Assembly: GCF_964355755.1 (NCBI RefSeq)
Contig: NC_092672.1
Location: forward strand, 12,152,001-12,216,000
Origin: Antedon mediterranea
Taxonomy: Eukaryota; Animalia; Echinodermata
Reading direction: 5' to 3'
DNA length: 64,000 nt
The position numbers were made by a program, and so were the translations under genes. Under the pieces are notes generated by a model that searched no databases, was not told the origin of the DNA, and saw nothing but the letters and a program-made list of their open reading frames with translations. Positions 22,102 to 53,105 of this stretch are shown piece by piece (positions within the stretch are counted from its first letter, which is position 1; every line of letters starts with the position of its first letter).

Positions 22102-22631
22102 CTAAGCATTATATTCTAACTTTTCAGCAGGAACAGTCATGTTATTCTCCTTTAAAAATGCAATAAATGATTGCAAGTTATCCTCCCTTAGAATCCCCCT
22201 ATGTTCAAGATCTAATATCACAGTCCATTGGTTGTTACTTTGTTTTTTTAGAACACTTTTCAAACGGATGAGATCTCTTGTATTTTCTTTCGAAAGTGCG
22301 TCACCAAACTGAATTAGGTGTTGTCGATATGTTGAGAAGGATGTGATACACTGGTTGGTTTTATCGAATGTCTCCTTTAACAGTTTGTTGACCTCCAAAA
22401 CACCATTGGTACTAGTGACATTAATTGCGTCAATAAGAACTTTCACGTTGGTAGTGGTAACATTGCCAGATCGTTTCAATAAGTTGAAGAAATCTATGCA
22501 GTCAGCATTCTGTAGATCATTGTAAGGTGTTATCAGATCTTTGCATAACACCTTCAGTTTATCAAGAGAGCCATGTTCATCATACCAGCTCGATACGTTT
22601 ACCACGATTTTTTCAAACTCTTCAGATGATT
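22102..22631 (-). CDS. ROCO terminal exon, tandem death effector domain-like
   Basis: tgcag acceptor, phase 1. Two helical units: F..IV.....LDKLKVLC..LI...FFNLLKRSG...NVKVL and YRQHLIQFGDALSKEN...ILDLEHRGIL.EDNL, resembling DED signatures. Confidence 0.78.
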
Positions 22632-25600: not shown

Positions 25601-28600
25601 CTACCTCTATAGTGCAGTGTTGCTGGCTCTACACAACTTCTTTCTGAAAATGAAAAAGATAATTACGATAATGATTGATAGACTGTTTTACTGCTCTTAT
25701 TTGTTTGGGTTTTCCTACTTCTAACAGTTTCAAAAGTTGTGTTGGCATCACTATTGATAATCTAGTTTTTAGTCGCGTGGAAGCGACTCTATAGTTCACT
25801 ATGTCGGTCGGTCGGTCTGTCTGTCGGTCTGTCTGTCTGTCTGTCGGTTCGGTATCACTATGCGTTTTATCGCTTTCTGACCTTATCTTGATATCAGTTT
25901 AATCTAGCTAGGTCAATTTTTCACAGTATATTCCTTATGGCCAGGAATCAATGTGGTTATGTTTTCACGGTGCGCAATAAAAAATTACGCGGTCTACGCA
26001 CGATTTAACGAAATCACGTTTGTAATCATATCTTCACAACCATGAATCACAATTAAATAAAATTTGGTACTCATAAATTTCAGGGCATAAATCATCATAT
26101 GGCAATACAATTACGTGCGTAGCGCATGTAACGCATGCGTACGCGCGCTTAAAATTTTCCAAATTTATTTTCGATGAAATAAGAGTACATTTCAGGCAAT
26201 TTTAAGCGTTTACAAAATTGCCATGAGTGCGATATTTTTGCGCGCGTACTGCGCGTTAAATGTTATTGCGCACTCTTTTTGCCCGATTTCTGTTTTCTTG
26301 ACTTACTTTTTAACTCGAAATTACGTTATGCGAGCACGTCGAAAGTGACAGGCTACGCACGTGTAAATTAAAAAAATATAAATGTTTTTAAACATTTCAA
26401 CATTTTTAAACATGTTCAGTAATTTCGGTCAGTATAGTTCACTATGTCGGTCGGTCTGTCGGTCTATCGGTCTGTATGTCGGTCCGGTATCACTATGCAT
26501 TGTAGCACGCGACTTAATGGCTGTTGGCCTTGTTAAATTGTAGGGTACAGTAATGGTATTTCTAGGGCTGGTATATGTAATGCATTTTAACAGATGGTTA
26601 ATTTATCAAGACTTTACTCAAATCTTGGAAGAAAGAAGAAAACATACAATAACATTGTTCTTCATAACTTTCGAAAACAAGTTATGTTTTAAAAACACTC
26701 ATTCATTTTTAAAAGACTTATGTATGGTCAGATGATAACGTATAGTTCAATATTTCTAATACTTGTATTTAATAATAGTGGTTGGTACAGTATGTCAGAT
26801 AGTACAATATGTGTATAATAATGATCATAGTAAGTAATTATTAGGTTTCATGAATAGATTGCACGTAAAAGTTGAATAATGTTTTCATTATTTATACAGA
26901 TATCATTCCAATAGTAAAAGTGTGAAACTGTAAAATCAACCTACTTACTTGTTTTTTCTGATGTTGAAGACATACGTGTTTCAAATGTCTTTTCTCTTTC
27001 TCCTTCAGTGGCATTTTGTTCAGCTGTAAAAAACAATTCATTTTGTAAAAAAGCAACATAAAAATTGGAAAAGTTATTGTTTTGAATTCCTTTCCAATCG
27101 TGTAGAATTCTTATAAATAAATTCAATAAATAAGTGTAAACAATACCATTCAGTTACTTTAGAGAACATAAAATAAAAGTAAATAAATGTTCAGACAAAC
27201 GTACCGGGCAAAAACAGACGCTTGATATGAGCAGTATCCATAGCGTCATTCTTTCCACATTCAACCGAATTCTCGTTTAAACACCTTTTGAGATTGTGTA
27301 AGTGATGTTTATTTGGATCACAAACAGTGCATAATACACGAAGTTTGTAACCGATACCCTCGTATATAGTACAGACAGTTTGTAGTTGTTTCTTCAAGTA
27401 GCTTAGTACCTAAAATGAGACGGACATTTTATCTCAAGATATAATTTATTATTACATGTCATAGTATGTTAATTTGTTAATTTCGTGTTCATTACCTCCA
27501 TGCAGACACTTGGTTGTAGTTCTGGTTTAACTTTCAACTCTATGTTAGTGTCATCAATAGCTGTAGTAGGACTCCAGATTCTTAGGCGATATATTTCAAG
27601 CTGTTAAAAAAACGAAGAGAAACATGTATACATGGGACCATTACTAATTTCAGAATCACCTTTTGTTAAATTGAATACAAAATACATCATTAAGTTTACA
27701 ACTTTAAGTAGGGCTAATATAAACGGACATATTCGATGAGGTAGGTGATTATTAAAGTAATCCAGATTTTATGATATTTCCTTTTGCATATATCTTAATT
27801 GAAAATGTAAATGAAAGTAAAAGAGCATGTCAATAGATATACTGAATGTATATACCTTCAATGCATATGGCTTTTCTTGTGTATTGTTAATTTTGACGAC
27901 ACCTAGACTGACTCTATGTTCTTTAAAGTTGAAGTCACTACGATTCCGATATACTAGTGGATCATCACTGTCGGCTTTCGTCGTCAATTCAAGAAATGCA
28001 ACAACTAAAGTGTGGTACACAGCATCAGGGAGAAAGTCGGTCGGAGTAAGGTAAATTGATACCATTTGCACATTATCATCTTTGGTGACTTCCAGACGCT
28101 CGTTGTCCACTTTCATCCGACACGGAACCAAGAACACTCGGTTACTATCTTCAACCCCCTGTTATGAACATAGTTACATAATTTAAAAGACAAACTTATT
28201 TTTTTATTATTCTTAAAATATTAAAATAATGTACTAGTTTTACTATCTACAGTTTTTTCTTCTTACATCACATTTATGTTTATTTTCATACAATAATGAT
28301 GTTCATAATGATACTATTATTTTTATTCCTAAAAATAGAAAAAAACTAATTTAAACATAAAATGATATCAGTCTAGTGAACGTAAAATACGGAACAACTT
28401 CCTAAAAACATCACAGATTCATCTACAAAAAAACATGCGGTTCTTTCTTAAAAGATTTTTCATTTAACTCTAAACTGTTATATTAAAAAATGAAAAAACA
28501 GTCAGTTAATGTTTAGCTTTGTTTTTTTCTGTCGCTAATTTGTATTTCCATATACAATTATAACTTGGTTTAATTTGTGTTAGAATTAAACTGTTAATTA

Positions 28601-31600
28601 ATAATTGTGAATCAAAAGCCGAATTATAAATTTATCTATACCATTATCACATTTGTTTTATTATTAATTTGTTTGATAATCATTATTTTAAACATGTATT
28701 GTTAACTTTGTTTAGATTGCATTTATAATTTAGACCATACATGCATACATAATAATTGTTAATAAACCTTAGTTTAGGAGTGTGTACTTACCGCCATTTC
28801 AAAAAGTAACCGAAACTCCTTCATTACTTCTATAAACACTTCAATGTGGCCTTCTTCCTGTTGCCATAGATAACGTAGTAACTTCTCCTCGAGAATCCCT
28901 TTCTCACTTAGCTTATTCCATAACTGCATCAGTTGCTTCTGTGTAAAAATCGTCTTAACTGTATCACTAAACACACGGTAATAATTATGTTTGACGAATC
29001 AATGAAATTAAGTCAAGAACAACAATGCAATTCCTGCCTACCTTTTTAATAGTCGGTTTAACTACTGTGATCACCTTTGTCAACATCTGAATCATTATGT
29101 GAATATTTGTTATCACTGTGTTTTCTAATTTCTTGTTAGTATTTGAATACATGATTGCTCCAATGTCATTTAGGTACGTTAATGCATGTAATAGCCCATC
29201 TGTTGAAATTCCACATTCAGTGCAAATCACAGAAGCCTAATAACAAATTGAGATTATTTAAAGAATTTGCGTACACTCTATTAAATCATAGATGATTATT
29301 ATAGATCTTACTATAGTTTATTATAATATCTCTATGATTGAATGTAGACGATGGTTTTTAGAAATTAGAATAATATATTGGGTAAACTCTCAAATTGTTG
29401 TAAAAAAGAGACGTTTTGACCAAATTAAAAATATTTGAATTGATGTAAAATATATAAAGAAACCTAAAATTTTATCAGTGTCTTTAAACTTACTCTATTC
29501 TGTCTGATGTCAACTTATTTTATTAGCTGCATTATGGGAGTATGTTTGAATAGGTGTAAAACATGACCGAAGTAATAATATGTACCGCGTTTAGAGCGTT
29601 CAAAACAATTGGCTCTTTATAAATCTAGGATCATCATTATCATTTTGGCTCTTTATAAATCCAGGATCATCATTATCAGTGTTATTACCGTTGTCGTCGT
29701 CGTCATCGTAATTTTTAATAACGTTCTACCATTTTTGCAGAATTATAAAATTCTGCTAAAATGGGCAAGCCAGAATGATATACATTGTCCCAAGACCTAC
29801 AGTATATTTTATAACCAACAAAAGTCAATACATGATTATTATCTTTAAAAAATAAAAAACATACCTCAATGAAGGTAATGCATAGTCTGGTTTTTCCCAT
29901 TCCTTGCAACCTTTCTTGCAAATCAAGCCACTTGAATGGAACGGTTCTCACCATGTCCTTCATGTAACGACCAACGTTTCTCCTTAGTTGTTTTATACCT
30001 TCATGTGATTTTACAGTGTTATCGACCATGTACATCTCACGATCTACATGATCGGCATATGGCATTCCTTCCATTGTTCTAAACATTAACTGAAACTTAT
30101 CCTCCACTTCCTTTAATAAAAATATTGTTTTCATTACAAGCGTAAACAAAACAACACAAATTTATCTTTTATTACAAAATGTTCATCCACATTCTGATTT
30201 GAATACATCTAGACCGTATACTATTAATTACCGATTATTTAATATAAATGCAGAACCAATATTACCTCCATCCAAATTTTTGATTTTGACTTTTTCAATT
30301 TGTCCATATGTGTAGCAACCAAACAGATAGGAGGTGACTGGATAATCTTGCCAACAACGTCAATGGGACTTCCTGGACCATGTCGTTTCACAGTATGTTC
30401 ATAAATGGACCTTATCCAGAACATATTCATTTCCAAATTGGTCATTCCTAGTGTACTCTAATATCACAAATAAAATGCAATCTTACAAAGTAAGCTAAAA
30501 TATTCTCAATAACAAAGATATGCATATTTAATAAAGTGTATTCGAGCGAAATAAGTAGGTAGTCAACTTACTGTGGTTGAATCTCGCGGATTAGCTGGTT
30601 CATCCAAGTTATCACACGCATTAAATGCTACACAGTAGGATACTCTATTTGTGAGGAAAAACTAAACAAAATACAATTGATAATAATAACTTTTTTTTAT
30701 ACTCCACGACATTTATTAGGGATGTGTTAATTGATACATGCAATCATACTTTGGTGAACATGTTATACCACAACACAATGTCGTACTGTCACTATGAGCA
30801 AATCTCTTTTTTTTTAATAATCATTTAACATATAAAACAAAAACTATGAACAAAAGAAAAAATACATAAATCAAATAAAATTGTAAAATATAATTTAAAG
30901 GTCTGTATAATAGAATAGATACGTAAACAAGCAAATCAATGCCCTTTTTTTAAACATGCACCAATAAATTTACTTTTTAATTTTTAAGACATTTTTAAGT
31001 AATAGCAAATAACAAAATAGGAACATACCCTATGCGTTATGTAGTAGTCCAGTTGACCTGCGTAGTCCCATATAGTAGTTACGTCACTTGGAATACTTTC
31101 TGAATCATCACTTCTTTTTACAAATTTCCTAATCAGTTTCATCGCCCAACTATCTTTCTGTCTTCGCTTTTTTATTTTAGCAACAACTTTTCTTTGAATG
31201 GAGTCGGGAATTGTCAGATTTTCTTTTAGTTGACTCTCTAAATTCAAATAATGACTACAAATCAATGGGGTGTGTGTACATTAGATATGGATATGGATAG
31301 ATGGACTGGTCTGATATGTTGTGAGTAGACATAATGAATGTTAATTTGGATAAAAAAGTGTATACAATAAATAAATACATCAGTCAGGATGATTAAAGAA
31401 TTGAACGAGCAGTGAATGAACACATTTATTTGTTTGCAACAAGAAAAGAAATCTCACTCTTCCCTGGTTGGACAAACTTTTTGAGAACATAATTTTCCAG
31501 AATGTTTCATACTAATGGTACAATGCCATACATATTATTTTATCAAATATAAAGAAAACCAAATAATGAGTCCAACCCTTTCTTGCTGATTCCACTGCCA

Positions 31601-34600
31601 ATGACGTGTAATCAGACTCTCTGGAATCAGATGTAGAAGCCTCACATAAAGGAAGTTCGTTGAAAGATGTTCTTTCTTTCATCTTTGATGTAATTTCTTC
31701 CACTACAGCCTCTTCAAATATTCTCTGGGTTTGCTTGAATCTGGAGTTTTCTGTCGGCGAAAATGTATAACTAAAAATGATTATTTGTGTCGTGTTGCAC
31801 TCATAACGAATAAAATGGTTATATTATTATATACTAGAGCAGTGAAATATCACTTATATGCCTGTATAAACTCCCCAGTTTAACAAGTACTACTTTATAT
31901 TAATAATAGTAAAACAATAATATAAACAACACTCCTATGAAGTTATAGTGTGATAATTTTGTGTTTCTTTCAGTATCAGCATGTATAATACACTACATTA
32001 ATTTATTATTTACATTAAGTTGGTTTATTTACTTTTTTTAAGAAAAGAAATTACTATTTTAGATCTTGTCATGCAATTAATTTGTTGTTTATTAATTCGT
32101 GCGAGGACTTGTTAGGCCTATTACTATTAGTAAAGTGATTATATACAAAACGACCACACTTTACTTATGCAAAATGATCGTCAAAAATATTTAAAAATTA
32201 ATCAAACCTTCCACTGAAGACACAGAGTCAGAAGATATAGAACATTCGAAATCAGATATTGGATATGTTGAAACTGCACCTTGTAAATGGAATTTGGTTT
32301 CAGTTGACGTTTGTTTTTTCATATTTGCTGTGATGTGTTCAGGCGTTTTCGGGGATGTTCCTGCAATTCATTATAATATATTTTTGATACAATATAATAG
32401 ACTGTATAACATTTCACTTTTATGTATGTTTCTATACTGTATGAGTGCATCTTAACTTGATTATGATCACATAGACAGTTTGTTTAGAATATTAAAAATA
32501 CCCTTGTAATAGAAATTGTAGTAGATATTCATCATACCTATTTTTACTGGATCCACAGAAGAGATTGCTGATGATTCCAGTTGGGAATCAGATTTAGATG
32601 TTGACATATCTGAACTTCCTTCACCATCATCCATTTCTTCCTTTATTAACTGTGTTGCAAGTTTTTCTGCAAGTGCATCTTCTCGTATTTTCTTGTTGAG
32701 CTCCATAACTGTTAAAAAAAAAGGTGAAATAAGATTGTACGATAAACATCATAGAGATAAATAAAAATACTAAAATTACAGAAATGAGATACATCATCAT
32801 ATCATCATCATCACCTGTAAAATACAATAAATATGTAGGTAATTTATGTAATTATAGACCCAAATGCATTTTTAAGTATTTGATAAAAATATTATTTCCA
32901 GTGTACCTTACCGGTACGTTTTTACCTTTATTATGATACTAATTAATCTCTATACACAAATTGGCCAAAGCAGGCAATTATGCGTTTGTTGAAGGAAGAA
33001 GAAAGAGAGAGTTTCTCTCTTTTGTGGGGACAGCTCACTTTGAACGAACAGTTAATGGGTTATTTGGTATGGTTGAATTCTTCTTTTCAAACTTACCGTC
33101 GATATCTTCCTTCTTCCACCTGTCACACTCTTTTCCAATTGCTTGAAACAATGTCGTTGTGATAGCAATACCATCAGTAGATGGTTCGTTGGATTTAAAT
33201 CTATAATAATGAATAATGAACTCTAAAAGGTCGGATTTAATGAAAGGAGAATGTATCCAATAGTTCATCTTAAAATATTAATATATTTAAAATAAAAACG
33301 AAGTGAAGATCACAAGTAAATAAGCATATGCTTCACACTTCTTGGGGATATTTAAAACAAACTGAAACTTTCAGCAACAGAATTTGCATAAACATCGTCG
33401 TCACCATCACCGTCTATGTCACCATCATCGTCATTATCATCATAATTGCCATTATAATCATCATCATTATTATTATTCGAAAAAGAATGAAAACCCGTTA
33501 CTCAAAGACGAAACTTCAGGTATCAACTATTTAAAATAAGAACCTCACTAATACCAATTTTTGTATTTTATTGAATAATTTACATATTAAAATACTCAGG
33601 ACCAAACTTATTATAAACAAGAAATCCAAACAACTCGTTAAATGTTGTCAATTGCATTAGAGATACTTATGAAAAAAGATAAAGTTTTTTAAATGGTTCA
33701 AAGAACAAAAGATTGATTTTAATATATTTTTTGATAAGGAATGTTATGCCATGACTATTATAGAGAACATGAATACACGATTTTAAATAAATGAGCACTT
33801 CATATATTGTAATGGTAAAAACACCATTCAACTTGTATCATAATTGCTGTTTATTGAGGAAGATCATGTATTTTTTATTAGTGCATCTCATAAAATAACT
33901 TTTTTCTTTTGTTACCTTTGTCCAAGCATGGCCTTTACACAGCTTGTTTTTCCAGCACCTTCTTTTCCGAGAAACATACATCTTGAATTTACAACTGCAA
34001 TTTCACCATTTTCAAGTTCATTTTGAAATGATCTAATGGCGCTCTCACCTCTAGCTAATATTTCAACTGGAACTAAATTGCAATTAAAATAAATGCAAAA
34101 TATACAAAAGGAAGTGTACAAATACAAATATTTTTCACTTAAGAATCAATTCAAAGCCAGAGTTTTAAAAATGTCATGAGAGCTCATCTTCGTCACATTC
34201 ATACAGTTCAAATGTTCAGTACAATGTTAAATATGTGTCATTAGTAATACACAGTTTAATATTCATGATGCAAAACTCAAGAAAAGTGTATTAATACAAA
34301 CTTACTGTCAAGTAACTCCAATATCGTATTTTTCTTTTCTTTGGAGATATGACTATCCTTCAAAGCAGATGCTGGTGTTTGTCCTCGCTATACAAAAAAT
34401 TGTATTAAAGTATTATCCACTGTTACTTTACTAATCTATATATAAATTTACGTAAGGAAAAAAATCGGTAAATCACCCCTTACTTCTAGAATTTTTATTT
34501 GATGGTATATATAGTTGGTTCGTACTTTTGGTACTGATTTTAACCACCTTATGTAACTCTGTTTACTAATTAAATTGAGTTAGATAATTATTTATTGACG

Positions 34601-40600: not shown

Positions 40601-43600
40601 AATATAATCCAAGTGGTATGAATAAATTGTTCATCTGCTTGAAAAACTACAAGTCAGTCGATGCTACAAACCACAAGGAAATTCATTATATCTCAGATGC
40701 TAGTGAAGTAGTATCTACTATTAGCTAACCCCAAAGTTACCCCAGCTAAAAAAAACAAGGTATCAAGTGTATGTAGCTAACCGGGTACAACAAATCAACT
40801 ATGCAACTTCCATAGAAAACATCTTCTAATCCGAGTGATATAGTCAGTGGAGCCGTGCGTGCTAACATTAAGCAATTGAGTTCAGATACCGGATGGGTGA
40901 GTAGTTCTACACTTTTTCACCAGGTAGTTCTTAACAAACAAAGGCGGTTGGCCGAAACCGATGACGAATAGCGTATGGTTGTTGCTTCAGAACTAAAATA
41001 TATTCGCTCATTCCACACTAATGTTGACAAAGTTGCTTCAGAATGGTTTTATAACAGACAGATAAAATTAACTATAAATCACATTAAATGTATTGAATGT
41101 TCATTCCCCTTAAAGGAGCCAACACGTAGTAAGGCATATTTTTTAGATATGCCTATCAATTATAATACAGACGGGTTAGCAATGAACACATTTTAAGAAA
41201 ATAATACAACTTGCTGATTTTAATTATTATAATACAAACGGGTTAGCATTGAAAACATTTTAGAAGTATTGATTTAGCGTCTTGTTCAATCTAAAACGCT
41301 ACAGCTACACGATGTTTAATATATTTTAAATTGTATTTTTGCTTTGATAATAGGCATAACTATACATTTTTCCAATGAGATACACATTAAACGAATCTAG
41401 GGTTTGTTTATAACGGGAGATAATGTAAATTAACTTGTAGTGTTAACTAATACAAATAATTACATTAATCCTTTTTAATTCATTGTAAAAGAGTAATTTA
41501 CATTGTTTGTTGCTGTGATTGATGCTCCATGGGCTATGAGACTGTTCACTATCTCTATATTACCACGGCCAAAATGAACGTGTTCATGTAGCGGTGTGTT
41601 TCCATCCTGGAAAGAAGAAAGTTAGCATTATTATATTTCATATTTATCCTTTTCTACATTCATTTTTCATTAAGAGTGAATGTAAATTATATAGAAATAC
41701 CTGGTATTAAGAAAATAATGACTAACTGATTTCAATTAAGACATTCAGAGGATTTAGCAATGAACATCATTTTGAAAGTATTGATTTTAGCGTCTTGTAT
41801 AATCTAAAATTCGACAGCTGTACATGATTTTCAAATATCGTAAATTATATGGTGATGGTTAATAACTATAAATAATATAATTTATTAAATTAATAAACAT
41901 ATTCCTACGCCTAGACATTTCGTTTAGATTCAAGTAAACTTTCATGAATACTGAATTAGTAGATATGTATGTATTTACCAAACCGCCTTCAAAACATAAT
42001 TGCAAATTCCAACAATACACTCTACGGTGAATTCAATAAATATTTTGTTATATTAATAATCTATTATTCATCCCACCTTCATCCTACAATGAAACAAAAA
42101 TGTTACGTAATTCGTTTCTCCCATTTGCTATGAGGCTTTTGAATGCAAGCTATGTGTATGTATCGTGTTATATGACATTTGCCTTTTTGTTATATTTGAT
42201 GCATTTGTATTTTATCCTATAGGTGTCGTACTGTCTGTATTTTACCAATTTTGTTTTAACTAGTACGATTAATAACGTTAATGATTTTAAATAATAGTAA
42301 ATCTCTGTCAACGCTACCAAACTGTATCAATAAAGTGTCGTACTGTCTGTATTTTACCAATTTTATCATATCTTTACTGTATTTATTTATTATATATTTA
42401 TTATATATAATAAAGTTGTTTCAGAATGGTTTATAACTGACAGATACAATGAACTATAAATCGCATTAAACGTATTGAATGTTCATTCCCCCCTTTAAGG
42501 TAGCAACGCAAACAGATTGATCAATTAGAAGCAATACAAAAGAGGGTATAAATTATATAATATTATAAAATAAAAACTATATACAGTATATGAAAATGCT
42601 CTCAGTGTATGTAATTTAGAAACCCTCGCTACTAGAAGAAAACACCTATGTCTAAGGTTTGCTAGAGACCTCGAAAAGTCGGCATATTTTCAATAATGTG
42701 TGTTGCTCCTATTTTAGCTGCATCGTTCCTTTCCGAGAGAGGGCGTATGTAAATAGAATCCATGTTATAAGTTTCGCATTGACTACATGTGTTCTAGAGT
42801 TCGGCTTCTAAATGTCTTATTGTGCCGAGATAGTGTGTAATTTACTAAACTATTAGGCCGCACATTGCTTGTAAGTTGTTAGAGTATTATATTACAATAA
42901 TTATAATTACTAGATGGTACGCTCGCTTCGCTCGCGTACCATCTGGGTCTTGCCCACAGATGGTTCTCGAATACATAATAATTTCAGCGTTAAAAAACTG
43001 GCGATTTCAAATGTACGTACCGCAGGACAATAATACATGTCGTTTACGGGAACGAATAAATAGACACTGTGATTTATGTACTGAACTAAAATTAGCACCC
43101 TGGGAATTACTTCCGAAAGAGAAACTTGTCACAAAATGAGACCAATTGTTTAAGTCAAATTTAAACAAACTTAATTTGTGTTTTGTATGTAACATTAGGG
43201 TTGAGGGATGGGAAAGAGGATGGGTGCAAAGAGGAACAATTTTTAAATATATTCTTTATCCATGTAGTAACGAAATATTAATTGTTTTCATGTTTTACAA
43301 ATAATATACCACTAAACACAGTAAAACATTGCGATGTAATACTTTATTGAAACTATCACCGTCCTAGTCGATTGAAATAGTACAGTACATGTAACGATAC
43401 ATCACTACGACGTGTATAATATGTTTATATAATGTAAAACAATTTGTGAAAACCACCCCTGTTCGTGGCAAATCATAAATTCGATTTAATCGTCAATAAA
43501 TATTAAATTATCTAACTCAACTTAATTAGTAGGCCTAATGGTTTTCAATTGTTTCTTAGAGCCAATTCATACTTAAGTTGGTTCCTAACCCTACCCACCA

Positions 43601-46600
43601 AAGTTGTTCTGCGTTTAGGGCATGTGATGCACCGTAGGCCTATCCTCTACTGGCTTTACAACGCTACTCATGCCAGTGAGGGAAGGGTGATGATGTCACT
43701 CGTGGCTGGTTTAACTGCAATAATAAAGATTTGTACATAATATACGGCGACTGAAAACGCTAGTTCATTATCCGTTAAAAAAAATCTATATCCAACCTCT
43801 GCAGCACAGATTGAAAAAAAAATGGATCGAATTTCTGTTATGAGTATACAGTACTTGCCTTTACGACGCCTGAGGGAATAGACACTTGTGGAACAGAGAA
43901 TGTTCCATTCATTTCAAATCAATACATTTGCATAAACGTTTATTAAATCTATCAAAATAGTATTTTTTTAAGAAAATCGGCCTGTCTTCAACATTATGAT
44001 ACTGTACTCGAGCTGTTCAACCGGTTTTCAGCTATTAAAAACAATTATCGTAGGAGGAGATAGGAAAATGCGAAGCCTCCTCGCATTTTTGTGGTGGGTA
44101 TTTTTCAAGATGGACATCCATTAGACAGTGTATACCACGATCGGAAAACACCCCTATTTGGGGCAAATCGTTGAACCTAAATTCGTTTTAATCGTCAATA
44201 ACTAATTATCTAACTTAATTTAATTAGTAAACAGGGTTACATCAGGTGGTTAAAATCAGTACCGAAAGTACGAACCAACTTTATATATGGGTGAGTGGCC
44301 GAGCGGTTAAGACAGTGGAACCGTAATCACGTAGCCATAACATCGGCAGGGGTTCGAGGCTCACTCACTCCATGGTTCTGGTGGTAGAACGAGTCTTCTC
44401 GGATAAGGACTATAAAACGTAGGTCCAGTGTACACAACTTGCTCGTGTGCACTTTAAAGAACCTAGTACATCTTTCGAGACGAGTAGGGGGTTACCCCGG
44501 TGTATTAGTACATCACAGCCACTGATCACCAACTGGGCCCTCTGGGAGACCAGTCTTTGACTGAAGAGGTTACCCAGTATAAATATATATTTCAATTTCA
44601 ATTCCATACCATCGAGTAAAAATTGTAAAAGTAAGGCGCGATTTACCGAATTTTGCCCTTACGTAAATTTATATATAGATATGAACCACAGTAGTGGCCT
44701 AGATTATTAATGCTATACTACATTGTGGTCGTAGGCCTGTGTAGATTGAATCGTATACGATCCCTTGAACAGCATGGCGATAAACACGAGTCTCCGTGTA
44801 GAGGGCGGTGTTCTATTTTGTATGCCGTATCTATAGAAGTAGTACGTCCGTATGAGGGCGCTGTTGATTTTTTGATGACTTTGTTTAATATGTTCTTTAG
44901 GCATGTACACCTCCGTAAGAGGGCGCTACGTTTGATCTGTTTTGCAGATAGTTTTATATTTATGTTATGTATATTATTACTATTTGGAGCTGGATTTAAG
45001 TATGCTTAATTTCAGTTAGTTCACCCTGTTTATGGCTGAATTTGCTGTATTAAAGAGTCAGTCAACAAGTGATTGTGTTGCAGTATTTTTTGTCGTGGAT
45101 TGGGTTTACCTACTGAATAGCGAGTTTGACGGTTCAAGCTCGTGAGGTCAACACAGTGAAAAGCAATGTCGACTTCTAGTAGAAGACGTGATGGTGGGAG
45201 AGATGATGCAAGGTCAATAGGGTCAAGAAGCCATAGATCGAAGGCATCATCGCAGTCAGTGTCATCATTAGAAGTATCTGCTGCACAAGATCGTGCTGAT
45301 GCTGCTGTAGCGAATGCTCGTGTTACATTTGCGAAGAAGAAGTTAGAGGCGTTGAAGGCTGAAATGGAAGCAGCTAAAGCTATGTTAGACATAGTCGAAG
45401 TAGAGAAAGAAGAAGAAATGGCTGCATCACAGGCTAGAGCCAATGTCCTTCAAGCAGAATTGCAACATATGTCTTTTGAAGATATTGAGGAAGAACTTTC
45501 ACAGTTAGAAAGCAATAATCAGATGGAAGAGGTGCAAGGCGCACCCCAAGATGCAGTACCCAGTCAAAGAATGGCAGAGGTGCTTAACGAACTTCCAAAG
45601 ATGGAACCCAGTCAGCGGGTAGAAAATTATCTAAACAATGCTGTAGAGGTACCAACGTCTACTCTTAATCCTGGAGCTAGATCTTACGAACCAAATCATA
45701 TGCAGGAGTACATTCGAATACTGGCACGTCAGCGATTACCCTTGCAAGAACCGGATATTTATTCTTGAGATCCAATAATGTTTCTTCCGTGGAAAAGATC
45801 CTTTAAAGCTATGGTGAAAACAGCCTGTGTGGACACTGTTGAAAAGCTGTCATTCCTGTGTAAATATACTACTGGCGAAGCAAAAGTTTTTGTTGATCGA
45901 TTCAGACTAAGGCATGTTGAAGATGTTGACAAGGCCTATCATGAGGCCTGGACGCGATTTTTTTTTTCGTACATAAGTTGGGGACCCCTTCATGAAACGT
46001 CACAAAATAAACATGAATAATTCATCAGTTAAATTTGTTGTTCCGTGTGCACCCAAGCGTATAGCAACAAGAAGTGATTACACAACTGCGATACGATACT
46101 TTCTACAGTAGGCCTAGGATTATAAGTCAATTCACGTGATTGCCTTCGCGCACTCTTCTTCACACAAAATGTGTCGTCGAGTCGAGGCTAATCGACAGCT
46201 AGGCAAGTACGGCAAGACATTAAACTAAGTAGTAATTCATTGGACATAGCCCAAAGAAAGCTTAGACCCACAAGAATAAAGAATGTGTATAATTTGTGTA
46301 CTGTATTTTTTTAATTCTGCTATTTTATTATCAAACAATATGCATGTACTCAAAGGAACTTTAAAAATGCGCGTATATTAACACATGAAATGGGAAGATT
46401 TGACCCACGAGAATGAAAATGTATTTTTGTGTAATGTTTATTGTTTAATTTTGCTGACTTATTACTCGGATTGTGTCATACCAAAGATAGTGTAAATATC
46501 TTTGGTCATACCTAACACACACACACCCACACAGCTACTACAGTACTACTACTAGAATAGACATGGGTTTAGAGACTAATAATTAGGCCTAATAGTATTA

Positions 46601-49600
46601 ATAGAAACTATAGTTTTAACACGTAATTCTTTAGTAAAAAATTATATTAAAAACACCATAAACTAAAGGCTGATTATTTCGACAATCCACACAAAACGCC
46701 GCTATTTTTCTATGAAATCGCACGCCGCAACAACAGCGGAGATAGGCCTAGAATCGTACCGCACTTGTGTAATCACTTCTTGTTGCTATACGCTTGGGTG
46801 CACACGGAACAAGAAAATTTAACTGATGAATTATTCATGTTTATTTTGTGACGTTTCATGAGGGGGTCCCCAACTTATGTACGAAAAAAAAAATCGCGGC
46901 CTGAACTGAGCTAGAAGACAGGTTCGGGAACCAAACCTTAATATCAGCTGAAATCATCCTGAGACTTACCAAATACAGAAGATTCAAAGAAGGTGATTTG
47001 ACCGCACTCCAAGAACTGGCTGATTTGTGTGGAGACGCAGTTGCTCAAATGCAGGAGCTACCCCATCTGATTACGTTAAACACTCCTCATGGTATTAAAC
47101 CAATTGTAGAGAAGTTACCACACTTCATAATTAATAAATGGAGAGAAAAGGTCGCAAAACATAAAAGGAAAATAAAAACGTTCCCGAATTTCAGCATGTT
47201 CACAGAGTTTCTAAGTGAGATGGCTCACATCCAACGTGATCCTGATGTCCCAAGAGGAATTGTTGATGAGGTCAAAACTGATACACCGGGAAACTACCGT
47301 ACACAGACAGGTTACCGTCCTAAGACCACGCAACGTTCAACTGTAAATGTGAGAATAACTGAGGTGAATAAATCTGAAGAGATGTGTCCGCTACACAATG
47401 GTCAGCATCCGTTGGTAGACTGTAGAAACTTTCTGGCCAAGACTTATGCTGCCAAGAAGTCATTCCTTAAGGAAAACCAAGTATGTTTCCGATGTCTCTC
47501 ATCTACATCACACATGGCTAGGAATTGTGATATAAATGTCAGGTGTGGAGAATGCGGTAGTGATCGTCACCCGACTGCATTCCATGGTGACCGTCCGCAG
47601 AAGGCGAATGGCGGAGAACATGTAAAAGCGGAGCAAAAAGCAAATGGCGGAGAGCAAGTAAAAATGGATCAAAAAAGGAAAAAGGTGAGAAGGAAAATGG
47701 CGGGGAGCAGGGGACAGAGTCACAGAAGACGAAGGAAAGAGACAAAGTAGTAAGTACTACATGTACGGATGTCTACCGTGGAATTGGGCTGAGCCGATCG
47801 TGTGCTAAAATCTGTTTAGCAAAATATATTTAGAAGACCATCCTAACACTTTCATAAAAACCTACATTATACTAAACGACCAAAGCAATCGCTCGTTGGC
47901 CAAGAGTGAGGTATTCGACCTTTTTAACATCAATGCAAGACTTACGTCTTATACTTTGAAGACCTGTTCGGGAGCGGCTGAAGTTCAAGGCCGAAAACTG
48001 GAGAAGCTGATAATTGAGTCCATGGATGGTAAAACAAGAATAGCAGCCCCATCGCTACTTGAATGTAATGACATACATGGGAACAAGGCAAAAATTCCCA
48101 CTCCAGAGACAGCCAGCAATTTTCCTCACTTGAAGGATATTGCGGACAAGATACCACCCTTGGATGAGAATGCAAATATTACCATACTGCTCGGCCGAGA
48201 TGCTGCTCAAGCTCATAAAGTCCGAGAAGTACGCAATGGACCAAATCACTCTCCATGGGGCCAACGACTTGATCTAGGCTTGATGGTTATTGGCGACGTC
48301 TGCTTAGGGGGAGCCCACCAAAAGAATGTTGTCACCGCCAACAGAAACCATATAAAGGTTTTGAGAAATGGTAGGCCATCCGCCATGTTTACAACTTGTA
48401 AAAGAATGATCAGTGCGAAGGAAATAACCCTGCAACGCAGCTGTGACGTACTCGGTGGTAATGTATTCTAACAGAAAGAAGATGACGTGAAGTATGGAAT
48501 GTCCAGAGAAGATGTGGAGTTCGTGAAACTTATGGGAAAAGAGATGAATCGTATGCAGTCTCTTATTCGCACACTGGATAAGAAGCTAGAGATGAAAGTT
48601 CACTACTTAGCGTTCATGGAGAAAGTATTCTCAAAGCAACATGCTGAGCTCGTCGAAGATGACAATCATGATGAAGAGTGCTGGTATATACCACACTTTG
48701 GTGTGTACCATCCACAAAAGCCAGGGAAGATCCGGGTGGTTTTTGATTCCAGTGCGCAATTCCAAGATACATCACTTAACAACGTGTTAATGAGTGGACC
48801 AGATCTGGTAAATGGGTTGCTTGGTGTATTGATACGGTTCAGGCAGGATCCTGTGGCGTTTGTAGCAGACATTGAGCAAATGTTATACTCATTTCAAGTC
48901 GTGGAAGAACACAGAGATTATCTTCGGTTCCTGTGGTTCGAAGACAACGACCCAAGCAAAGTATTGAGAACGTATCGGATGAAAGTTCACATCTTCGGAA
49001 ACAAGCCTTCTCCAGCTGTTGCTACGCTAGGACTGAGAAAGACTGCACAAGAAGGAGAGAGCAAGTTTGGCGCAGATGCAAGAGAGTTCGTGGAGAAGAA
49101 TTGTTATGTCGATGATGGGCTGAAGTCTTTAGCTACTTCAGATGAGGCGATCGACCTGCTCAAGCGCACACAAGCCATGTTAGCCACAGCTAATTTACGA
49201 TTACACAAGATCGTCTCAAACGATGCAAAAGTGATAGCAGCTTTCTCACCTCAAGATGTAGCAAGTAACATGTGCAACCTCGATCTCGGATCTGACACCC
49301 CTCTTATGCAAAGGTCATTAGGGGTACTGTGGGATGTCAAGTCAGATGCTTTTACTTTCTCTATTACGGAGGTTAGCAGCAAGGCATTCACTAAGCGAGG
49401 AGTGCTGTCAGAAATCAACAGCATATATGACCCAATTGGCTTTGCGTCACCCGTCATTATAGAGGGAAGAAGGCTGTTAAGGGAAATGACAAGAGATCAA
49501 TGCATAGATTGGGATGAGCCATTACCGAAACAGCTATATGATTCATGGCAGAAGTGGCAAAGCTCCATAGTTCAACTTTCAGAGGTTCTGATCCCTCGTC

Positions 49601-52600
49601 CTTATACATCATTTCCATCAAACCAGTCCATCCAGAGAGAACTCCACACATTCTCTGATGCTTCTAACACAGCCATTGGCGCTGTGTCTTACCTCAGAAT
49701 TACTGATAAAGTGGGAGAAGTTCACCTGAGTTTTGTTGTTGGAAAGGCAAAGCTAGCACCTAAAGCTGCGACATCAATACCACGCTTAGAGTTGTGCGGA
49801 GCAGTACTTGCCGCAGAAGTCGCAAAATGTGTTAAAACTGAATTGGATTTTAACTTGGATGCCACACATTTTTACACCGATAGCAAGGTCGTTCTCGGTT
49901 ATATCAGAAATAAAACCCGTAGGTTCTACATGTACGTGGGGAACAGAGTGGATCAGATTCTTCAGTCGACCAAACCCCCAGAACAATGGAAATATGTTAA
50001 AACAGATATAAACCCAGCCGATCAAGCTACAAGATCCATCAAGGCTAAAGACTTACAGAACTCGGCATGGATTCAAGGACCAAGATTCCTACTTAATAAG
50101 AACTCGTGTGAGAGAAACACAACGGTCTGTGACATCAGTGAAATTGAAGAGGATCCCGAAGTAAGACCTGTCGTAGCTACCAGTGCTACAGAAGTTCAGT
50201 CAGCCAAATCACTGGGATCCGAGCGATTTAGCAGATTTTCGAATTGGGGAAATCTTGTGCGAGCAATTGGAAGTCTTGTGCATATTGCTTGTACGTTCAC
50301 AGAAACCAAGAAAAAAGACTGTAGTGGGTGGCATGTATGCATGATTCCACCACCTGTATTGATTAAGGCAAAACAGATTGTAGTGAAATGTGCTCAACTT
50401 GATGAATTCACAGCTGAAATCAATCACATGAAGAATGGAAAACATCTTCCCAAGACAAGTACGCTAGTAAAGCTTACACCTTATTTGGATAACAAGGGAG
50501 TCATGCGAGTTGGAGGACGTTTAGAAATGGGACTAGCCGAAGAAGGAGGGCATCCTATGATTCTTCCCAAACATCACCATGTTACAACATTAATCATCCG
50601 CCACTACCACCAACAAGTTCAACACCAAGGCAGACACCTAACACATGGAAGAATACGTAGTGAAGGCTTCTGGATAATAGGTGGCAAGAGGTCAATCTCA
50701 AAGGAGCTTGAAAAGTATGTAGTTTGCAAGAAGCAGAGAGGAAAGCAAGAGACACAGAAAATGGCTGATTTACCTAAGGAATGCTTAACATCAGCTCCCT
50801 CATTCACATATGTAGGGTTTGACGTATTCGGTCCTTGGATGGTACGAACACGGCGCACAAGAGGTGGACAAGCAAACGGAAAACGATGGGCCATTTGTTT
50901 ACTTGCATGTGTAGTCGGGCTGTCCATATAGAGGTGATAGAGGGTATGGATACCTCAAGCTGCTTGAACGCCCTTAGAAGATTCTTTGCGATAAGAGGTC
51001 CTGCGAAACAACTACGGTCAGATTGTGGGACGAATTTTGTTGGTGCGTGCAATATCTTGGGTGAAAGTATTCAGAAAGAAGGACAAGATAAAATTAAACG
51101 CTATCTATTGACCCGTGAATGTGAGTGGGTGTTCAACCCGCCTCATGCATCCCATATGGGAGGAAGTTGGGAACGTATGATTGGAGTAGCAAGGAAGATT
51201 ATAGATGGTATGTTTAGAGATCTTGGAGAAACCAAGTTAACCCACGAAGTCCTGGTAACACTAATGGCAGAAGTATCAGAAACTATTAATGCACGACCCT
51301 TAGTAGAAGTCTCTACTGATCCTGAATCACCACAAATAATATCACCAAACACTCTACTTACTCAAAAGTCTCAACCATTCGCAGCACTTCCTGGAGCGTT
51401 TTGTAATGCTGATTTGTATGGTAAGCGGTGGCGAACGGTACAGCACTTGGCTAAAAAATTTTGGTCAAAATGGAAAAGAGACTATATCCCTACACTTCAG
51501 AACAGAAGCAAGTGGCAACATGAAAAGAGGAATATAAAGGAAGGAGATATTGTTCTTCTAAAGGAGAAAGACACCGTCAGAAATGATTGGCCTTTGGGAC
51601 GAATCGTTAAAGCAATTGAAGGATCAGACGGACGAGTTAGGAGAGTGGAAGTGACTGTTTATAGAGGTGGAGAACTGAAAACCTTTGCAAGACCGATTAG
51701 TGAATTGGTACTGATAATGCCGACTCCTTAAGAGTTACATTGAACATTATTATAATGAATATTATGTCATATTATTTTGTATTGTTTATGTTTTAACTTT
51801 TTGATATGAATGGTATCCTTTAGATACCAGACGGGGAGTGTGTTGCTCCTATTTTAGCTGCATCGTTCCTTTCCGAGAGAGGGCGTATGTAAATAGGATC
51901 CATGTTATAAGTTTCGCATTGACTACATGTGTTCTAGAGTTCGGGTTCTAAATGTCTTATTGTGCCTAGTAGGCCGCACATTGCTTGTAAGTTGTTAGAG
52001 TATTATATTACAATAATTATAATCTATATATAAATTTACGTAAGGGCAAAATTCGGTAAATCGCCCCTTACTTCTAGAATTTTTACTCGATGGTATATAA
52101 AGTTGGTTCGTACTTTCGGTACTGATTTTAACCACCTGATGTAACCCTGTTTACTAATTAAATTAAGTTAGATAATTAGTTATTGACGATTAAAACGAAT
52201 TTAGGTTCAATCAACGATTTGCCCCAAATAGGGGTGTTTTCCGATCGTGGTATACACTGTCTAATGGATGTCCATCTTGAAAAATACCTGCCACAAAAAT
52301 GCGAGGAGGCTTTGCATTTTCCTATCTCCTCCTACGATAATTGTTTTTAATGGCTGAAAACCGGTTGAACAGCTCGAGTACAGCATCATAATGTTGAAGA
52401 CTGGCCGTGCTATTTTGTAAAATTTTACACATTTTAGCCTTTGGCTACAATATAAATGTCATTGTATTGAACAAAAATGAAAGCATTGTTAGATAGGTCT
52501 ATCAATGGAAACTTAACAGTGATATAATACAACAAAACAGATAAAATAATGTAATGATTGTTTCAACATTGCATGGAGCCATGTAACGGCAATATGTGTA

Positions 52601-53105
52601 ACCGAGTTAATGATTATGTAATTGTCGTTGAAGGTATCATATTTCTTCATTATAAAAACTTTGGAAAGATTTAGTATCTTTTTGACGGGTGTTTTGTTTC
52701 ATAAATAATTTAAAGTCATCTGACAAGCTAGTATAACTGACCGCAAAGTCAGTTTACTGTATGTCTATTAATCCGCTGGATTCAGTGTTCAGTGTAAATA
52801 ATATATTTTAAAATTTGGATTGTATAATTATATAAATATAGTTTCTATACCTTATCGACGACGTTCACAAGATGTGGATATTTCTTGCATATTTCTTCAA
52901 TTTCTTTCAAGCCTTGTTTATATCTTACAGCTCTTAGCAATACGTATCTGAAAAAAAGAAGATAAAAATGCATTTCTGGCAAGAATACTCGAACGATGAT
53001 GTTGATATCTATTTATAACATTAAAAGTTTGTAGGATATAAAATGTAAAGCTTTAAAATGCAGTCCTCCACAATTTGAAGATATAACTTACCGGTACTCA
53101 TCCAT
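22102..53105 (-). CDS. Multi-exon ROCO-family gene: ankyrin repeats - Roc GTPase - COR - tandem DED-like; no kinase domain; 26 coding exons, ~1306 aa
   Basis: Manual splicing gives GT-AG introns with consistent phases and a 3921-nt stop-free CDS. Motifs: GxTPLH ankyrin repeats, P-loop GKEGAGKTS, G2 STDG, G3 WDYAGQ, G4 ATHMD, COR-type VPFKWL / YLNDIGAIMY / FLVPC, and a C-terminal helical death-fold pair. Confidence 0.88.
23221..25559. mobile_element. Non-autonomous hAT (hAT5-like) DNA transposon in the last ROCO intron
   Basis: Perfect 16-bp TIR cagggctgcaaattaa/ttaatttgcagccctg; 5-bp TSD gaaaa; no transposase ORF recognised. Confidence 0.78.
25605..25643 (-). CDS. Possible 39-nt ROCO linker mini-exon (RSCVEPATLHYR)
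   Basis: ttttcag/gtag, phase 1-1, open; not required to keep the frame. Confidence 0.5.
25766..26534 (+). mobile_element. Long HINE/DINE-1-like element
   Basis: Same termini and microsatellite blocks as 14456-15210. Confidence 0.75.
26949..27023 (-). CDS. ROCO linker exon
   Basis: tttttacag/gtaagt, 75 nt, phase 1-1. Confidence 0.72.
27205..27409 (-). CDS. ROCO exon, Cys/His-rich COR C-terminus (LCTVCDPNKHHLHNLKRC)
   Basis: tag/gtacg, phase 0-1. Confidence 0.82.
27496..27600 (-). CDS. ROCO exon, COR-B
   Basis: cag/gtaat, 105 nt, phase 0-0, open frame. Confidence 0.8.
27856..28158 (-). CDS. ROCO exon, COR (FLVPC...FLPDAVYHTLV)
   Basis: cag/gtata, COR-B start motif. Confidence 0.87.
28792..28938 (-). 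CDS. ROCO exon, COR (KGILEEKLLRYLW...MKEFRLL)
   Basis: cag/gtaag, COR GIL...W motif. Confidence 0.87.
29042..29236 (-). CDS. ROCO exon, COR-A (ALTYLNDIGAIMY)
   Basis: COR LxYLxDxGxIxY motif. Confidence 0.9.
29865..30110 (-). CDS. ROCO exon, Roc end / COR start (YMVDN...VPFKWL)
   Basis: Open frame, phase 0-0, COR VPxxW motif. Confidence 0.88.
30266..30457 (-). CDS. ROCO exon, Roc G4 (FWIRSI...PPICLVATHMD)
   Basis: Roc-type WxxSI and VxTHxD motifs. Confidence 0.9.
30572..30661 (-). CDS. ROCO exon, Roc (FFLTNRVSYCVAFN)
   Basis: FFLT motif directly follows G3; phase 0-0. Confidence 0.88.
31029..31237 (-). CDS. ROCO exon, Roc G3 (TTIWDYAGQLDYYITHR)
   Basis: Canonical Roc WDxAGQxxYYxTH motif. 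Confidence 0.92.
31577..31750 (-). CDS. ROCO exon, Ser/Glu-rich Roc insertion
   Basis: cag/gttgg, 174 nt, phase 1-1, open frame. Confidence 0.72.
32208..32360 (-). CDS. ROCO exon, Ser/Thr-rich Roc insertion
   Basis: cag/gtttg, 153 nt, phase 1-1, open frame. Confidence 0.72.
32538..32708 (-). CDS. ROCO exon, Roc insertion (helical, then Ser-rich)
   Basis: cag/gtatg, phase 1-1, open frame. Confidence 0.8.
33097..33200 (-). CDS. ROCO exon, Roc switch I (FKSNEPSTDGIAI)
   Basis: STDG G2 motif; tag/gtaag, phase 2-1. Confidence 0.9.
33916..34072 (-). CDS. ROCO exon, Roc N-terminus with P-loop (PVEILARG...CMFLGKEGAGKTS)
   Basis: PxEI pre-Roc motif and Walker A motif; phase 1-2. Confidence 0.92.
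34306..34387 (-). CDS. ROCO exon, ankyrin C-cap (RGQTPASALKDSHISKEKKNTILELLD)
   Basis: tag/gtaag, phase 0-1, GQTP motif. Confidence 0.8.
34435..35015 (+). mobile_element. Helitron family H, internally deleted copy
   Basis: Starts A|TCTATATATAAATTTACG; reverse complement of blocks in the other copies; 3' CTAG end degraded. Confidence 0.7.
35351..36010 (-). mobile_element. Possible second non-autonomous Helitron-like family, degraded
   Basis: actagcagcaacccgtgctccgca terminus resembles a Helitron 3' end; the other end is unclear. Confidence 0.35.
36240..36347 (-). CDS. Ankyrin repeat exon A6 (EGNTPLHEHVGTGTSGKIEIVNSLIAHGASLKARNK)
   Basis: 108 nt, phase 0-0, cag/gtac. Confidence 0.88.
37109..37213 (-). 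CDS. Ankyrin repeat exon A5 (DGDTPLHKHVWYGEGNVEIVNSLIAHGASITATNN)
   Basis: 105 nt, phase 0-0, cag/gtaa. Confidence 0.88.
37915..38019 (-). CDS. Ankyrin repeat exon A4 (KGNTPLHVHFRFADGNVEIVNSLIAHGASITATNN)
   Basis: 105 nt, phase 0-0, cag/gtaa. Confidence 0.88.
38418..38522 (-). CDS. Ankyrin repeat exon A3 (identical to A2)
   Basis: 105 nt, phase 0-0; part of a 377-bp tandem duplication. Confidence 0.8.
38795..38899 (-). CDS. Ankyrin repeat exon A2 (NGNTPLHAHVELGRGNIEIVNSLIAHGALIKAANN)
   Basis: 105 nt, phase 0-0, cag/gtaa. Confidence 0.85.
41502..41606 (-). CDS. Ankyrin repeat exon A1 (DGNTPLHEHVHFGRGNIEIVNSLIAHGASITATNN)
   Basis: 105 nt, phase 0-0, cag/gtaa, ankyrin consensus. Confidence 0.88.
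42910..44679 (-). mobile_element. Non-autonomous Helitron, family H near-complete copy, inside the 5' LTR
   Basis: A|TC...CTAG|T termini; hairpin agatggtacgc...gcgtaccatct. Confidence 0.83.
44289..44604 (+). mobile_element. tRNA-derived SINE nested in a Helitron
   Basis: A box tggccgagcgg, B box ggttcgaggc, non-tRNA body, (atttca)n tail; absent from the other Helitron copies. Confidence 0.8.
45166..51731 (+). pseudogene. BEL/Pao gag-pol polyprotein, disrupted
   Basis: Three Cys/His knuckles (CPLH..HPLVDC, CFRC..HMARNC, CGEC..HPTAFH); protease site ILNDQS (catalytic Asp apparently replaced by Asn); RT KIRVVFD/YVDD; RNase H FSDAS/IPRLELC; integrase SDCGTNF/GGSWERM. Stops at 45766 and ~48470, frameshifts near 47.7-47.9 kb and ~50900, and a MITE insertion. 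Confidence 0.92.
45954..46897. mobile_element. MULE-like MITE inserted in BEL gag
   Basis: ~140-bp TIR; 9-bp TSD ggcctggac/ggcctgaac; removing it restores the gag frame HEAW-TELEDRFG. Confidence 0.85.
52023..52407 (+). mobile_element. Helitron family H 5' fragment truncating the 3' LTR
   Basis: A|TCTATATATAAATTTACG start; reverse complement of ~43975-44679 without the SINE. Confidence 0.8.
52851..52947 (-). CDS. ROCO exon 2, ankyrin N-cap (YVLLRAVRYKQGLKEIEEICKKYPHLVNVVDK)
   Basis: Polypyrimidine-cag acceptor, gtat donor, ends in phase 0 with VNVVDK, typical of the linker before a GxTPLH repeat. Confidence 0.75.
53092..53105 (-). CDS. ROCO coding exon 1 (MDEYR, start codon); exon extends as 5' UTR to ~53149
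   Basis: tttttcag acceptor at 53150, ATG GAT GAG TAC CG|gtaag; phase 2 matches the next exon. Confidence 0.65.

Follow-up and report, generated by a model that had tools for sequence, protein, structure and literature searches.

A kinase-less ankyrin-Roc-COR protein with a predicted tandem death effector domain from the feather star Antedon mediterranea

What does the long ankyrin-GTPase gene on the minus strand of this stretch of Antedon mediterranea DNA encode, and what might its product do? The window is the whole stretch that was analyzed, 64,000 nucleotides of AT-rich animal DNA (contig NC_092672.1, positions 12,152,001 to 12,216,000), and an earlier note had described the gene, from the letters alone, as a kinase-less chain of ankyrin repeats, a Roc-COR GTPase module and tandem death effector domains (DEDs) that would function in a manner analogous to NLRs. 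On balance we think that this kinase-less ankyrin-Roc-COR-tandem DED protein belongs to a large set of variable receptors that work inside crinoid cells in immunity or cell death, acting most likely through caspase-8-like proteases, and we hold with good confidence the narrower view that it senses a variable ligand and signals through DED contacts.

Splice-site testing of the window gives a minus-strand gene at 53105-22102 with 26 exons, all 25 introns being GT-AG and consistent in phase. The spliced frame extends from an ATG at 53105 to a stop codon that ends at 22102, encodes 1306 amino acids (aa) and contains no other stop, in agreement with the stop-free spliced open reading frame of ~1306 aa reported in the earlier note. 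A 39-nt exon of 13 residues (25605-25643) was located by means of the RefSeq homologue P0001, and the donor of exon 14 is weak (GTTGGA), with the identical junction found in P0004 and P0216. Along the chain the order is N-terminal cap (exons 1-2), six ankyrin repeats (3-8), C-terminal cap (9), Roc (10-18) and COR (18-23), followed by a 39-residue linker (24-25) and, in the last exon (26), the tandem DED. That all of these parts belong to one chain is supported both by the in-frame exon model and by paralogues P0006 (XP_071964214.1) and P0011 (XP_071964198.1), in which ankyrin repeats, Roc-COR and a DED pair also occur together.

The DED assignment, previously made by eye, proves to be right. 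Pfam places a DED on the last exon with an expectation value (E) of 1.3e-7 (32.2 bits, below the 35.9 cut-off), and AlphaFold2, supplied with an alignment of 52 sequences picked from the last exon and the shorter ones among 150 matches, returns a model with a predicted local distance difference test (pLDDT) value of 93.9 and a predicted template modeling (pTM) score of 0.89; the single-sequence fold was useless (pLDDT 45.5). The top Foldseek match of the model is a caspase-8/cFLIP DED assembly (E 5.8e-4, TM ~0.65), and all 24 of the matches listed are DED structures of caspase-8, cFLIP or viral FLIPs. Alignment to 8ym5_A with VIA-align gives Z 17.3 and a root-mean-square deviation of 2.6 over 165 residues, to be compared with 14-16 for FLIPs, 11.5 for the single FADD DED, 6-7 for death domains and 7.2 for the best non-DED structure. 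Searches of the PDB by sequence were far less informative, the last exon alone producing one unrelated match (E 0.46) and the last-exon profile reaching cFLIP and FADD at E 0.2-0.8 only. The last exon is thus predicted, from the modeled structure, to form a tandem DED of the caspase-8/cFLIP type with the two DEDs packed as one unit, at ~18% sequence identity to caspase-8.

The GTPase motifs G1-G4 are intact, as had been noted, with G1 at aa 311, the G2 threonine near 336, G3 at 585 and G4, in its Roco-type TH-x-D form, at 676, and Roc is followed directly by COR in an LRRK2-type GTPase module, as the Roco family requires. Applied to single exons Pfam matches Ank and COR-A, while Roc is weak on these fragments; in the near-identical P0001 both COR-A (7e-15) and Roc (2e-10) lie above cut-off. 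A crinoid Roc-COR profile gives its top scores against prokaryotic Roco structures, the linker helix before G1 included, the motif alignment to these structures having been made through paralogue P0158. The distance from G1 to G3 is 266 residues here and 96-99 in five other Antedon paralogues (99 in P0006 and P0011), because of a Ser/Glu/Lys-rich insertion (exons 12-14). Exon 23, at the end of COR, contains a CxxC...H...C...C cluster that a pattern test finds in 5 of 10 relatives and that is possibly a zinc site.

The claim that there is no kinase domain also stands. None of the 58 minus-strand stop-free stretches of at least 28 codons in the 10.9 kb upstream matches a kinase family, and a crinoid kinase domain used as query finds nothing in the window better than E 3, so that an upstream kinase exon can be rejected within those 10.9 kb; in addition, the ATG has two in-frame stops a short way upstream, and paralogues P0206, P0006 and P0156 begin at the same N-terminal cap. 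No kinase family was found in any of the at least 61 Roc-COR matches described below. Of the features that characterize the DAPK1 group, the N-terminal kinase is missing and so is the single C-terminal death domain, in place of which there is a tandem DED (Z 17.3 vs 6-7 for death domains). The window gene is a real Roco gene and, by defining features, neither an NLR nor a DAPK1.

The proposed sensor end of the gene is variable. Each of the six ankyrin repeats corresponds to one phase 0-0 exon, and exons 4 and 5 are identical, being part of a 377-bp tandem duplication (38216-38965, 99%) that may be an assembly artefact. Among the five distinct window exons codons 1-14 show 22 non-silent and 0 silent minimal changes and codons 15-28 show 2 and 4, respectively (Fisher p 0.0007; p 0.003 against the neutral share), with pairwise pN/pS values of 0.262/0.030 in the first half and 0.031/0.184 in the second. 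Over 13 repeats taken from the window, P0206 and P0001, positions 1, 8 and 11 accept 7 residues each, position 12 accepts 5 and position 14 accepts 6; the TPLH motif is invariant and helix 2 mostly near-invariant. Close paralogue P0206 (XP_071944626.1), which matches the N-terminal half of the window protein, is identical to it at 18/47 of the variable repeat positions vs 142/162 of the remaining ones, and at 167/171 positions of the Roc stretch after the repeats. Contigs from 4/4 sequencing runs carry multiple alternative letters at the same repeat codons (8, 11-14). The variable positions fall in the hairpin and first helix, the binding face that is randomized in designed ankyrin repeat proteins (DARPins). 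Randomized surface positions of DARPins form the paratope (PMC8683736). Judged from these sequences the ankyrin repeats vary mainly on the likely binding face, and what had been proposed as a variable sensor now has evidence from repeat-codon changes, the comparison with P0206 and the alternative letters in multiple runs. Brown-algal ROCO receptors have the same arrangement of single-repeat exons whose surface residues diversify, seen here in a small sample. An orphan copy of an ankyrin-exon acceptor, with no exon behind it, is present at 37465-37471 and is likely a remnant of cassette turnover.

Splicing of these exons can be followed in X1, the only candidate RNA run, although its RNA status is a guess and introns are covered too. 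Around exon 3 the depth of X1 falls ~eight-fold across the donor and by a factor of four to seven across the acceptor. The loose contig ends listed there read into the beginning or end of a further ankyrin exon, into the start of exon 9 (29/29 letters as in the window) and into an exon-2-like end (25/30, of the P0206 type); those listed from three DNA-like runs are intron-like. The X1 loose ends thus place ankyrin exons of the family next to one another, next to exon 2 and next to exon 9 after splicing, in joins that cannot be attributed to single gene copies, the repeat-to-repeat ones included. No exon-exon joint occurs among 15 of the 160 joints from long contig alignment, and one X1 contig ceases aligning at the border of exon 26.

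Crinoids have an expanded Roc-COR family in which the tails (DED pair, HEPN or death domain) have been swapped, and the gene is one of its members. All 30 proteins that were looked up are from Antedon or Anneissia, and when longer proteins are searched with the last exon, 8/8 matches are models of Antedon mediterranea. Residues 691-1306 are reproduced exactly by P0215 (XP_071944617.1), P0216 agrees at 707/708 C-terminal residues and at only 304/322 in the N-terminal half of Roc, and P0001 is 95% identical over residues 214-1306. Since P0006 and P0011 carry ankyrin repeats, Roc, COR and DEDs, the full architecture is already in the databases, unnamed, while the models closest to this locus cover only part of it; P0006, P0011, P0215 and P0206 are Antedon mediterranea RefSeq models, all entered as "uncharacterized protein". 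The Roc-COR profile finds at least 61 proteins, comprising 50 from crinoids, 2 scallop Roc-COR-death-domain proteins and others that are bacterial-type or unnamed, counts which, with 14/15 query rows from crinoids, are not an animal-wide survey. In 83 COR-bearing proteins, a number that includes fragments, isoforms and the window model, the DED pair lies after COR in 42 and before it in 6, with one having both, and other family members have HEPN or death domains as tails. A quick COR tree covering 51 rows, built without short matches, the two scallop proteins and three near-duplicates, requires 4 changes of the DED label, 3 of them forced by strong branches; HEPN- and death-tailed members nest among DED-tailed ones, and hence tails have been repeatedly swapped or lost. 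In paralogues P0006 and P0011, and in the tail of P0159, the COR-to-DED linker has grown into long tandem repeats rich in proline and glutamate (up to ~420 residues), making the effector tether very variable in length. One model, P0156, contains two Roc-COR units, and another kind of DED pair, divergent from the first, occurs in P0158 and at the end of P0005.

The DED-pair subfamily of the window protein also occurs on a range of other crinoid proteins. Among 81 of the 150 matches, which were scanned, are 24 with NACHT, 16 with Roc and/or COR, 3 with TIR, 2 with a caspase, 1 with RIG-I and 1 with Rel, along with 2 false ones. In a FastTree tree of 212 DED segments the Roc-linked and NLR-linked pairs are intermixed, and the window pair is 26-31% identical to caspase pairs and up to 34% to NLR pairs. 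Fusion partners of the pair in P0072, P0078, P0030, P0096, P0107, P0150 and P0126 include a RIG-I-like helicase, a Rel homology domain, a kinase, ubiquitin proteases, TAZ/KIX-Roc-COR and NTPase-TPR, and P0009 has five or six DED pairs ahead of NACHT.

How might such a protein work? We envision that the ankyrin face would bind a changing ligand and that the Roc-COR GTPase would set the on or off state. Chlorobium Roco is dimeric with GDP or without nucleotide and monomerizes on GTP (PMC5714945), for which reason dimerization on activation is not to be assumed for the feather-star Roc-COR. By analogy, a resting, GDP-bound Roc-COR dimer could hold the DED pair; ligand on the ankyrin face would shift the nucleotide state, the dimer would open on GTP, and the DED pair on its linker would be freed or clustered and might then recruit crinoid proteins with the same DED pair, most probably caspase-8-like proteases. 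Ligand binding, GTP-dependent dimer change, homotypic DED assembly and caspase activation are steps that we infer, the change in dimer state being borrowed from the bacterial protein. A caspase as direct partner of the DED pair is conceivable but somewhat doubtful. The analogy with NLRs drawn in the earlier note survives in part: the same DED-pair subfamily is present on NACHT proteins (24/81 scanned), while NACHT/NB-ARC itself is missing, with Roc-COR instead. As in NLRs, the effector is a death-fold module in common with downstream signaling proteins (24 NACHT proteins and 2 caspases of the 81), and to say that the protein works like an NLR is well motivated, given the expanded family with swapped tails and the occurrence of the same DED-pair subfamily on NLRs and caspases and on one RIG-I-like and one Rel protein. 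A more far-reaching picture, which we offer tentatively and regard as rather unlikely, is that of a second, GTPase-based crinoid repertoire beside the NLRs, in which DARPin-like phase-0 ankyrin cassettes, multiplied by duplication, diversified and perhaps alternatively spliced, are combined with a lineage-specific DED pair wired to Roc-COR that serves as the common plug of NLRs, a RIG-I-like receptor, Rel and caspase-8, such that a Roco GTPase would directly nucleate a death-effector filament.

A number of points weigh against a caspase-coupled receptor. Its function is read from sequence and predicted structure; GTP-dependent monomerization in bacterial Roco, if the analogy is carried over, runs opposite to the clustering of NLRs; and the selection test involves 5 exons and a post hoc codon split, with gene conversion likely. 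Only 2/81 scanned DED-pair proteins are caspases, both from another crinoid, and the window pair is no closer to the caspase than to the NLR pairs, falling in its own clade of 13 without caspases. The hydrophobic FL patch in DED2 and the RxDL motifs are known from vertebrate DEDs as filament motifs; in the alignment both are replaced here, and likewise in the crinoid caspase pair, so that a vertebrate-type filament is not a given. Model P0215 starts at residue 691, and either this locus or a twin is therefore annotated at less than full length; the COR-to-DED join is taken from RefSeq models, and the exon-2-like end in X1 is of the P0206 type. A complex prediction for the window DED pair and that of an Anneissia caspase-8-like protein (score 0.24, mark 0.34) is used neither for nor against.

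Some of these same observations would fit an immune-type sensor whose DED pair works without a caspase, binding the DED pairs of NLR, Rel, TIR or RIG-I-like proteins, or dampens the response by capping in the manner of cFLIP and the viral FLIPs. Most carriers of the pair are not caspases (2/81), Rel and TIR proteins are among them, the fit of FLIPs to the model (Z 14-16) is almost as good as that of caspase-8, and the filament motifs are not kept. A pure inhibitor, however, would have little need for a diversifying ankyrin face, the pair occupies the effector position on NLRs, and crinoid caspases do carry it, and we consider this alternative unlikely.

A role away from pathogens is more improbable still, whether the variable repeats serve self/non-self or gamete recognition or a scaffold in regeneration or autotomy, or simply drift by turnover, or the protein is a kinase-less, GTP-regulated scaffold like DAPK1. 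The order ankyrin-Roc-COR-death-fold is that of DAPK1 minus the kinase (PMC6337361), yet prokaryotic Roco structures give the best scores for the linker helix and Roc, in a comparison that did not include the DAPK1 Roc-COR. Tandem exon duplication alone creates variation, as the identical exons 4 and 5 illustrate, but drift would not leave one half of the repeat with 22 non-silent changes and no silent one, and copy expansion with tail swapping is typical of conflict systems (PMC8195603), which speaks against a non-pathogen role. There is, finally, a slight chance that the window copy, as part of a tandem array, is split or in decay and that the full chain is made by paralogues instead: P0215 equals residues 691-1306 only, P0216 agrees with the window at its C-terminus (707/708) and differs in the N-half, a broken retrotransposon fills intron 2, and many family models are fragments. 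Set against this are 26/26 exons that are in frame, GT-AG and stop-free, intact G1-G4, exon 9 letters in the X1 join that match the window 29/29, and the full-length paralogues P0006 and P0011.

Where does the receptor that we favor stand among known systems? P0006 and P0011 share its ankyrin-Roc-COR-DED layout and differ in G1-G3 spacing (99 vs 266 aa here). DAPK1 carries ankyrin repeats ahead of Roc-COR. It resembles the window protein in these and in a death-fold domain at its end, but has an N-terminal kinase and one death domain where the window protein has no kinase, a DED pair, many copies and variable repeats. Animal NLRs share the three-part logic and, in crinoids, the DED-pair subfamily; NACHT/NB-ARC is theirs, and the order is reversed here, sensor first and effector last. 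With the caspase-8/cFLIP prodomains the fold is held in common, in spite of the low identity to caspase-8 (~18%) and the missing filament motifs. The brown-algal leucine-rich repeat (LRR)-ROCO proteins are also kinase-less repeat-Roc-COR proteins of an expanded family, with one repeat per exon, exon shuffling, positive selection on a diversifying binding face and a proposal as immune receptors; their sensor is an LRR and not the ankyrin repeats found here, their layout is described as LRR-Roc-COR without a DED tail, and alternative splicing is reported (PMC3341825, PMC11378527). Prokaryotic LRR-AP-GTPase(Roc)-COR proteins, predicted to be counter-invader systems, likewise combine a variable repeat sensor, a GTPase switch and a variable C-terminal effector, with paralogues bearing different tails; they are bacterial, use LRRs, and end in no fewer than 24 kinds of tail, TIR, caspase, trypsin and GT4 among them, on prediction only (PMC8195603). 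Animal Roc-COR with death-fold or immune adaptor domains is known from Aplysia, in TLR- and MyD88-like proteins with TIR/death domains (PMC9334734), and from Trichoplax, whose lineage-specific expansion of at least 17 ROCO genes involves CARD, death, TPR and LRR domains, ankyrin and DED being absent from the main text (PMC4104024). DEDs have been grafted onto invertebrate RIG-I-like receptors (PMC8998645), Roc and COR are absent from the accessible part of PMC6321704, and none of the three Roco groups, DAPK1 being group 3, matches the ankyrin-Roc-COR-tandem-DED layout in the accessible text of PMC6337361. A literal search of the open-access literature found no paper combining "Roc-COR" with "death effector domain" or "Antedon" with "Roco", although older Roco surveys or supplements may list such proteins. 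The sensor-Roc-COR-effector logic has thus been published before, for brown algae and for bacteria, and Trichoplax has provided Roc-COR proteins with death-fold domains. What appears to be undescribed is the pairing of an ankyrin-cassette sensor with a tandem DED as tail, together with the crinoid-wide use of that DED pair.

Features of the gene and of its large second intron, with positions numbered from the first letter of the window
Feature	Position	Strand	Evidence
Exon 1, start codon at 53105	53092..53105	-	Gene model; in-frame stops upstream; P0206, P0006, P0156 start here too
Exon 2, N-terminal capping repeat	52851..52947	-	Gene model; 27/35 identical to P0206 N-terminus
Exon 3, ankyrin repeat 1, 105 nt, phase 0-0	41502..41606	-	Gene model, Pfam
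Exon 4, ankyrin repeat 2, 105 nt, phase 0-0	38795..38899	-	Gene model
Exon 5, ankyrin repeat 3, identical to exon 4	38418..38522	-	Gene model; tandem duplication
Exon 6, ankyrin repeat 4, 105 nt, phase 0-0	37915..38019	-	Gene model
Exon 7, ankyrin repeat 5, 105 nt, phase 0-0	37109..37213	-	Gene model, Pfam
Exon 8, ankyrin repeat 6, 108 nt, phase 0-0	36240..36347	-	Pfam; X1 contig joins such an exon to exon 9
Exon 9, C-terminal capping repeat	34306..34387	-	Gene model; X1 contig join
Exon 10, linker helix and Roc G1 (P-loop)	33916..34072	-	Gene model, Roco structure alignment
Exon 11, Roc G2	33097..33200	-	Gene model, motif reading
Exon 12, Ser/Glu/Lys-rich insertion between G2 and G3	32538..32708	-	Gene model
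Exon 13, insertion	32208..32360	-	Gene model
Exon 14, insertion, weak donor	31577..31750	-	Gene model; junction matched in P0004, P0216
Exon 15, Roc G3	31029..31237	-	Gene model, Pfam
Exon 16, Roc	30572..30661	-	Gene model
Exon 17, Roc G4	30266..30457	-	Gene model, motif reading
Exon 18, Roc end and COR-A start	29865..30110	-	Gene model; Pfam on P0001
Exon 19, COR-A	29042..29236	-	Pfam E 7.3e-6
Exon 20, COR-A	28792..28938	-	Pfam E 2.5e-4
Exon 21, COR	27856..28158	-	Gene model, Roco structure alignment
Exon 22, COR	27496..27600	-	Gene model
Exon 23, COR end with conserved Cys/His cluster	27205..27409	-	Pfam COR-B weak, E 0.19
Exon 24, linker	26949..27023	-	Gene model
Exon 25, 39-nt linker exon	25605..25643	-	RefSeq homologue comparison
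Exon 26, predicted tandem DED pair and stop codon	22102..22631	-	Pfam, AlphaFold2, Foldseek, VIA-align
Broken Bel/Pao-type long terminal repeat (LTR) retrotransposon in intron 2	45160..51728	+	Peptidase_A17 E 6e-47, DUF5641, rve

The Bel/Pao-type element in the 11.2-kb intron 2 is a passenger on the opposite strand and lies outside the encoded protein; it is disrupted by stops, frame changes and a 952-bp insertion (45950-46901) with ~150-bp inverted ends, and a clear LTR pair was not found for it. Farther upstream, at 58002-63032, a 71-bp unit is repeated in tandem 71 times at 95% match. The upstream flank 54318-63911 recurs at 16663-21084 (84-96%), and as a single 71-bp unit at 19745-19816 sits inside this copy of the surroundings, the array has expanded from one unit. 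A second paralogue downstream, which the repeated flank might have announced, was rejected, protein searches finding no second exon set in the window. Fragments of a long interspersed nuclear element (LINE)-type element lie at 3647-6646 on the minus strand (endonuclease match E 3.6e-5).

If our interpretation is true, the feather star would offer a kinase-free animal Roco with a simple input, the variable ankyrin face, and a simple output, DED assembly, in which the role of the Roc-COR switch in proteins of the LRRK2/DAPK1 type would become directly testable, and the idea of Roco proteins as immune receptors, developed for brown algae and bacteria, would be extended to a deuterostome. More broadly, the finding points to a crinoid signaling network around one shuffled DED pair.

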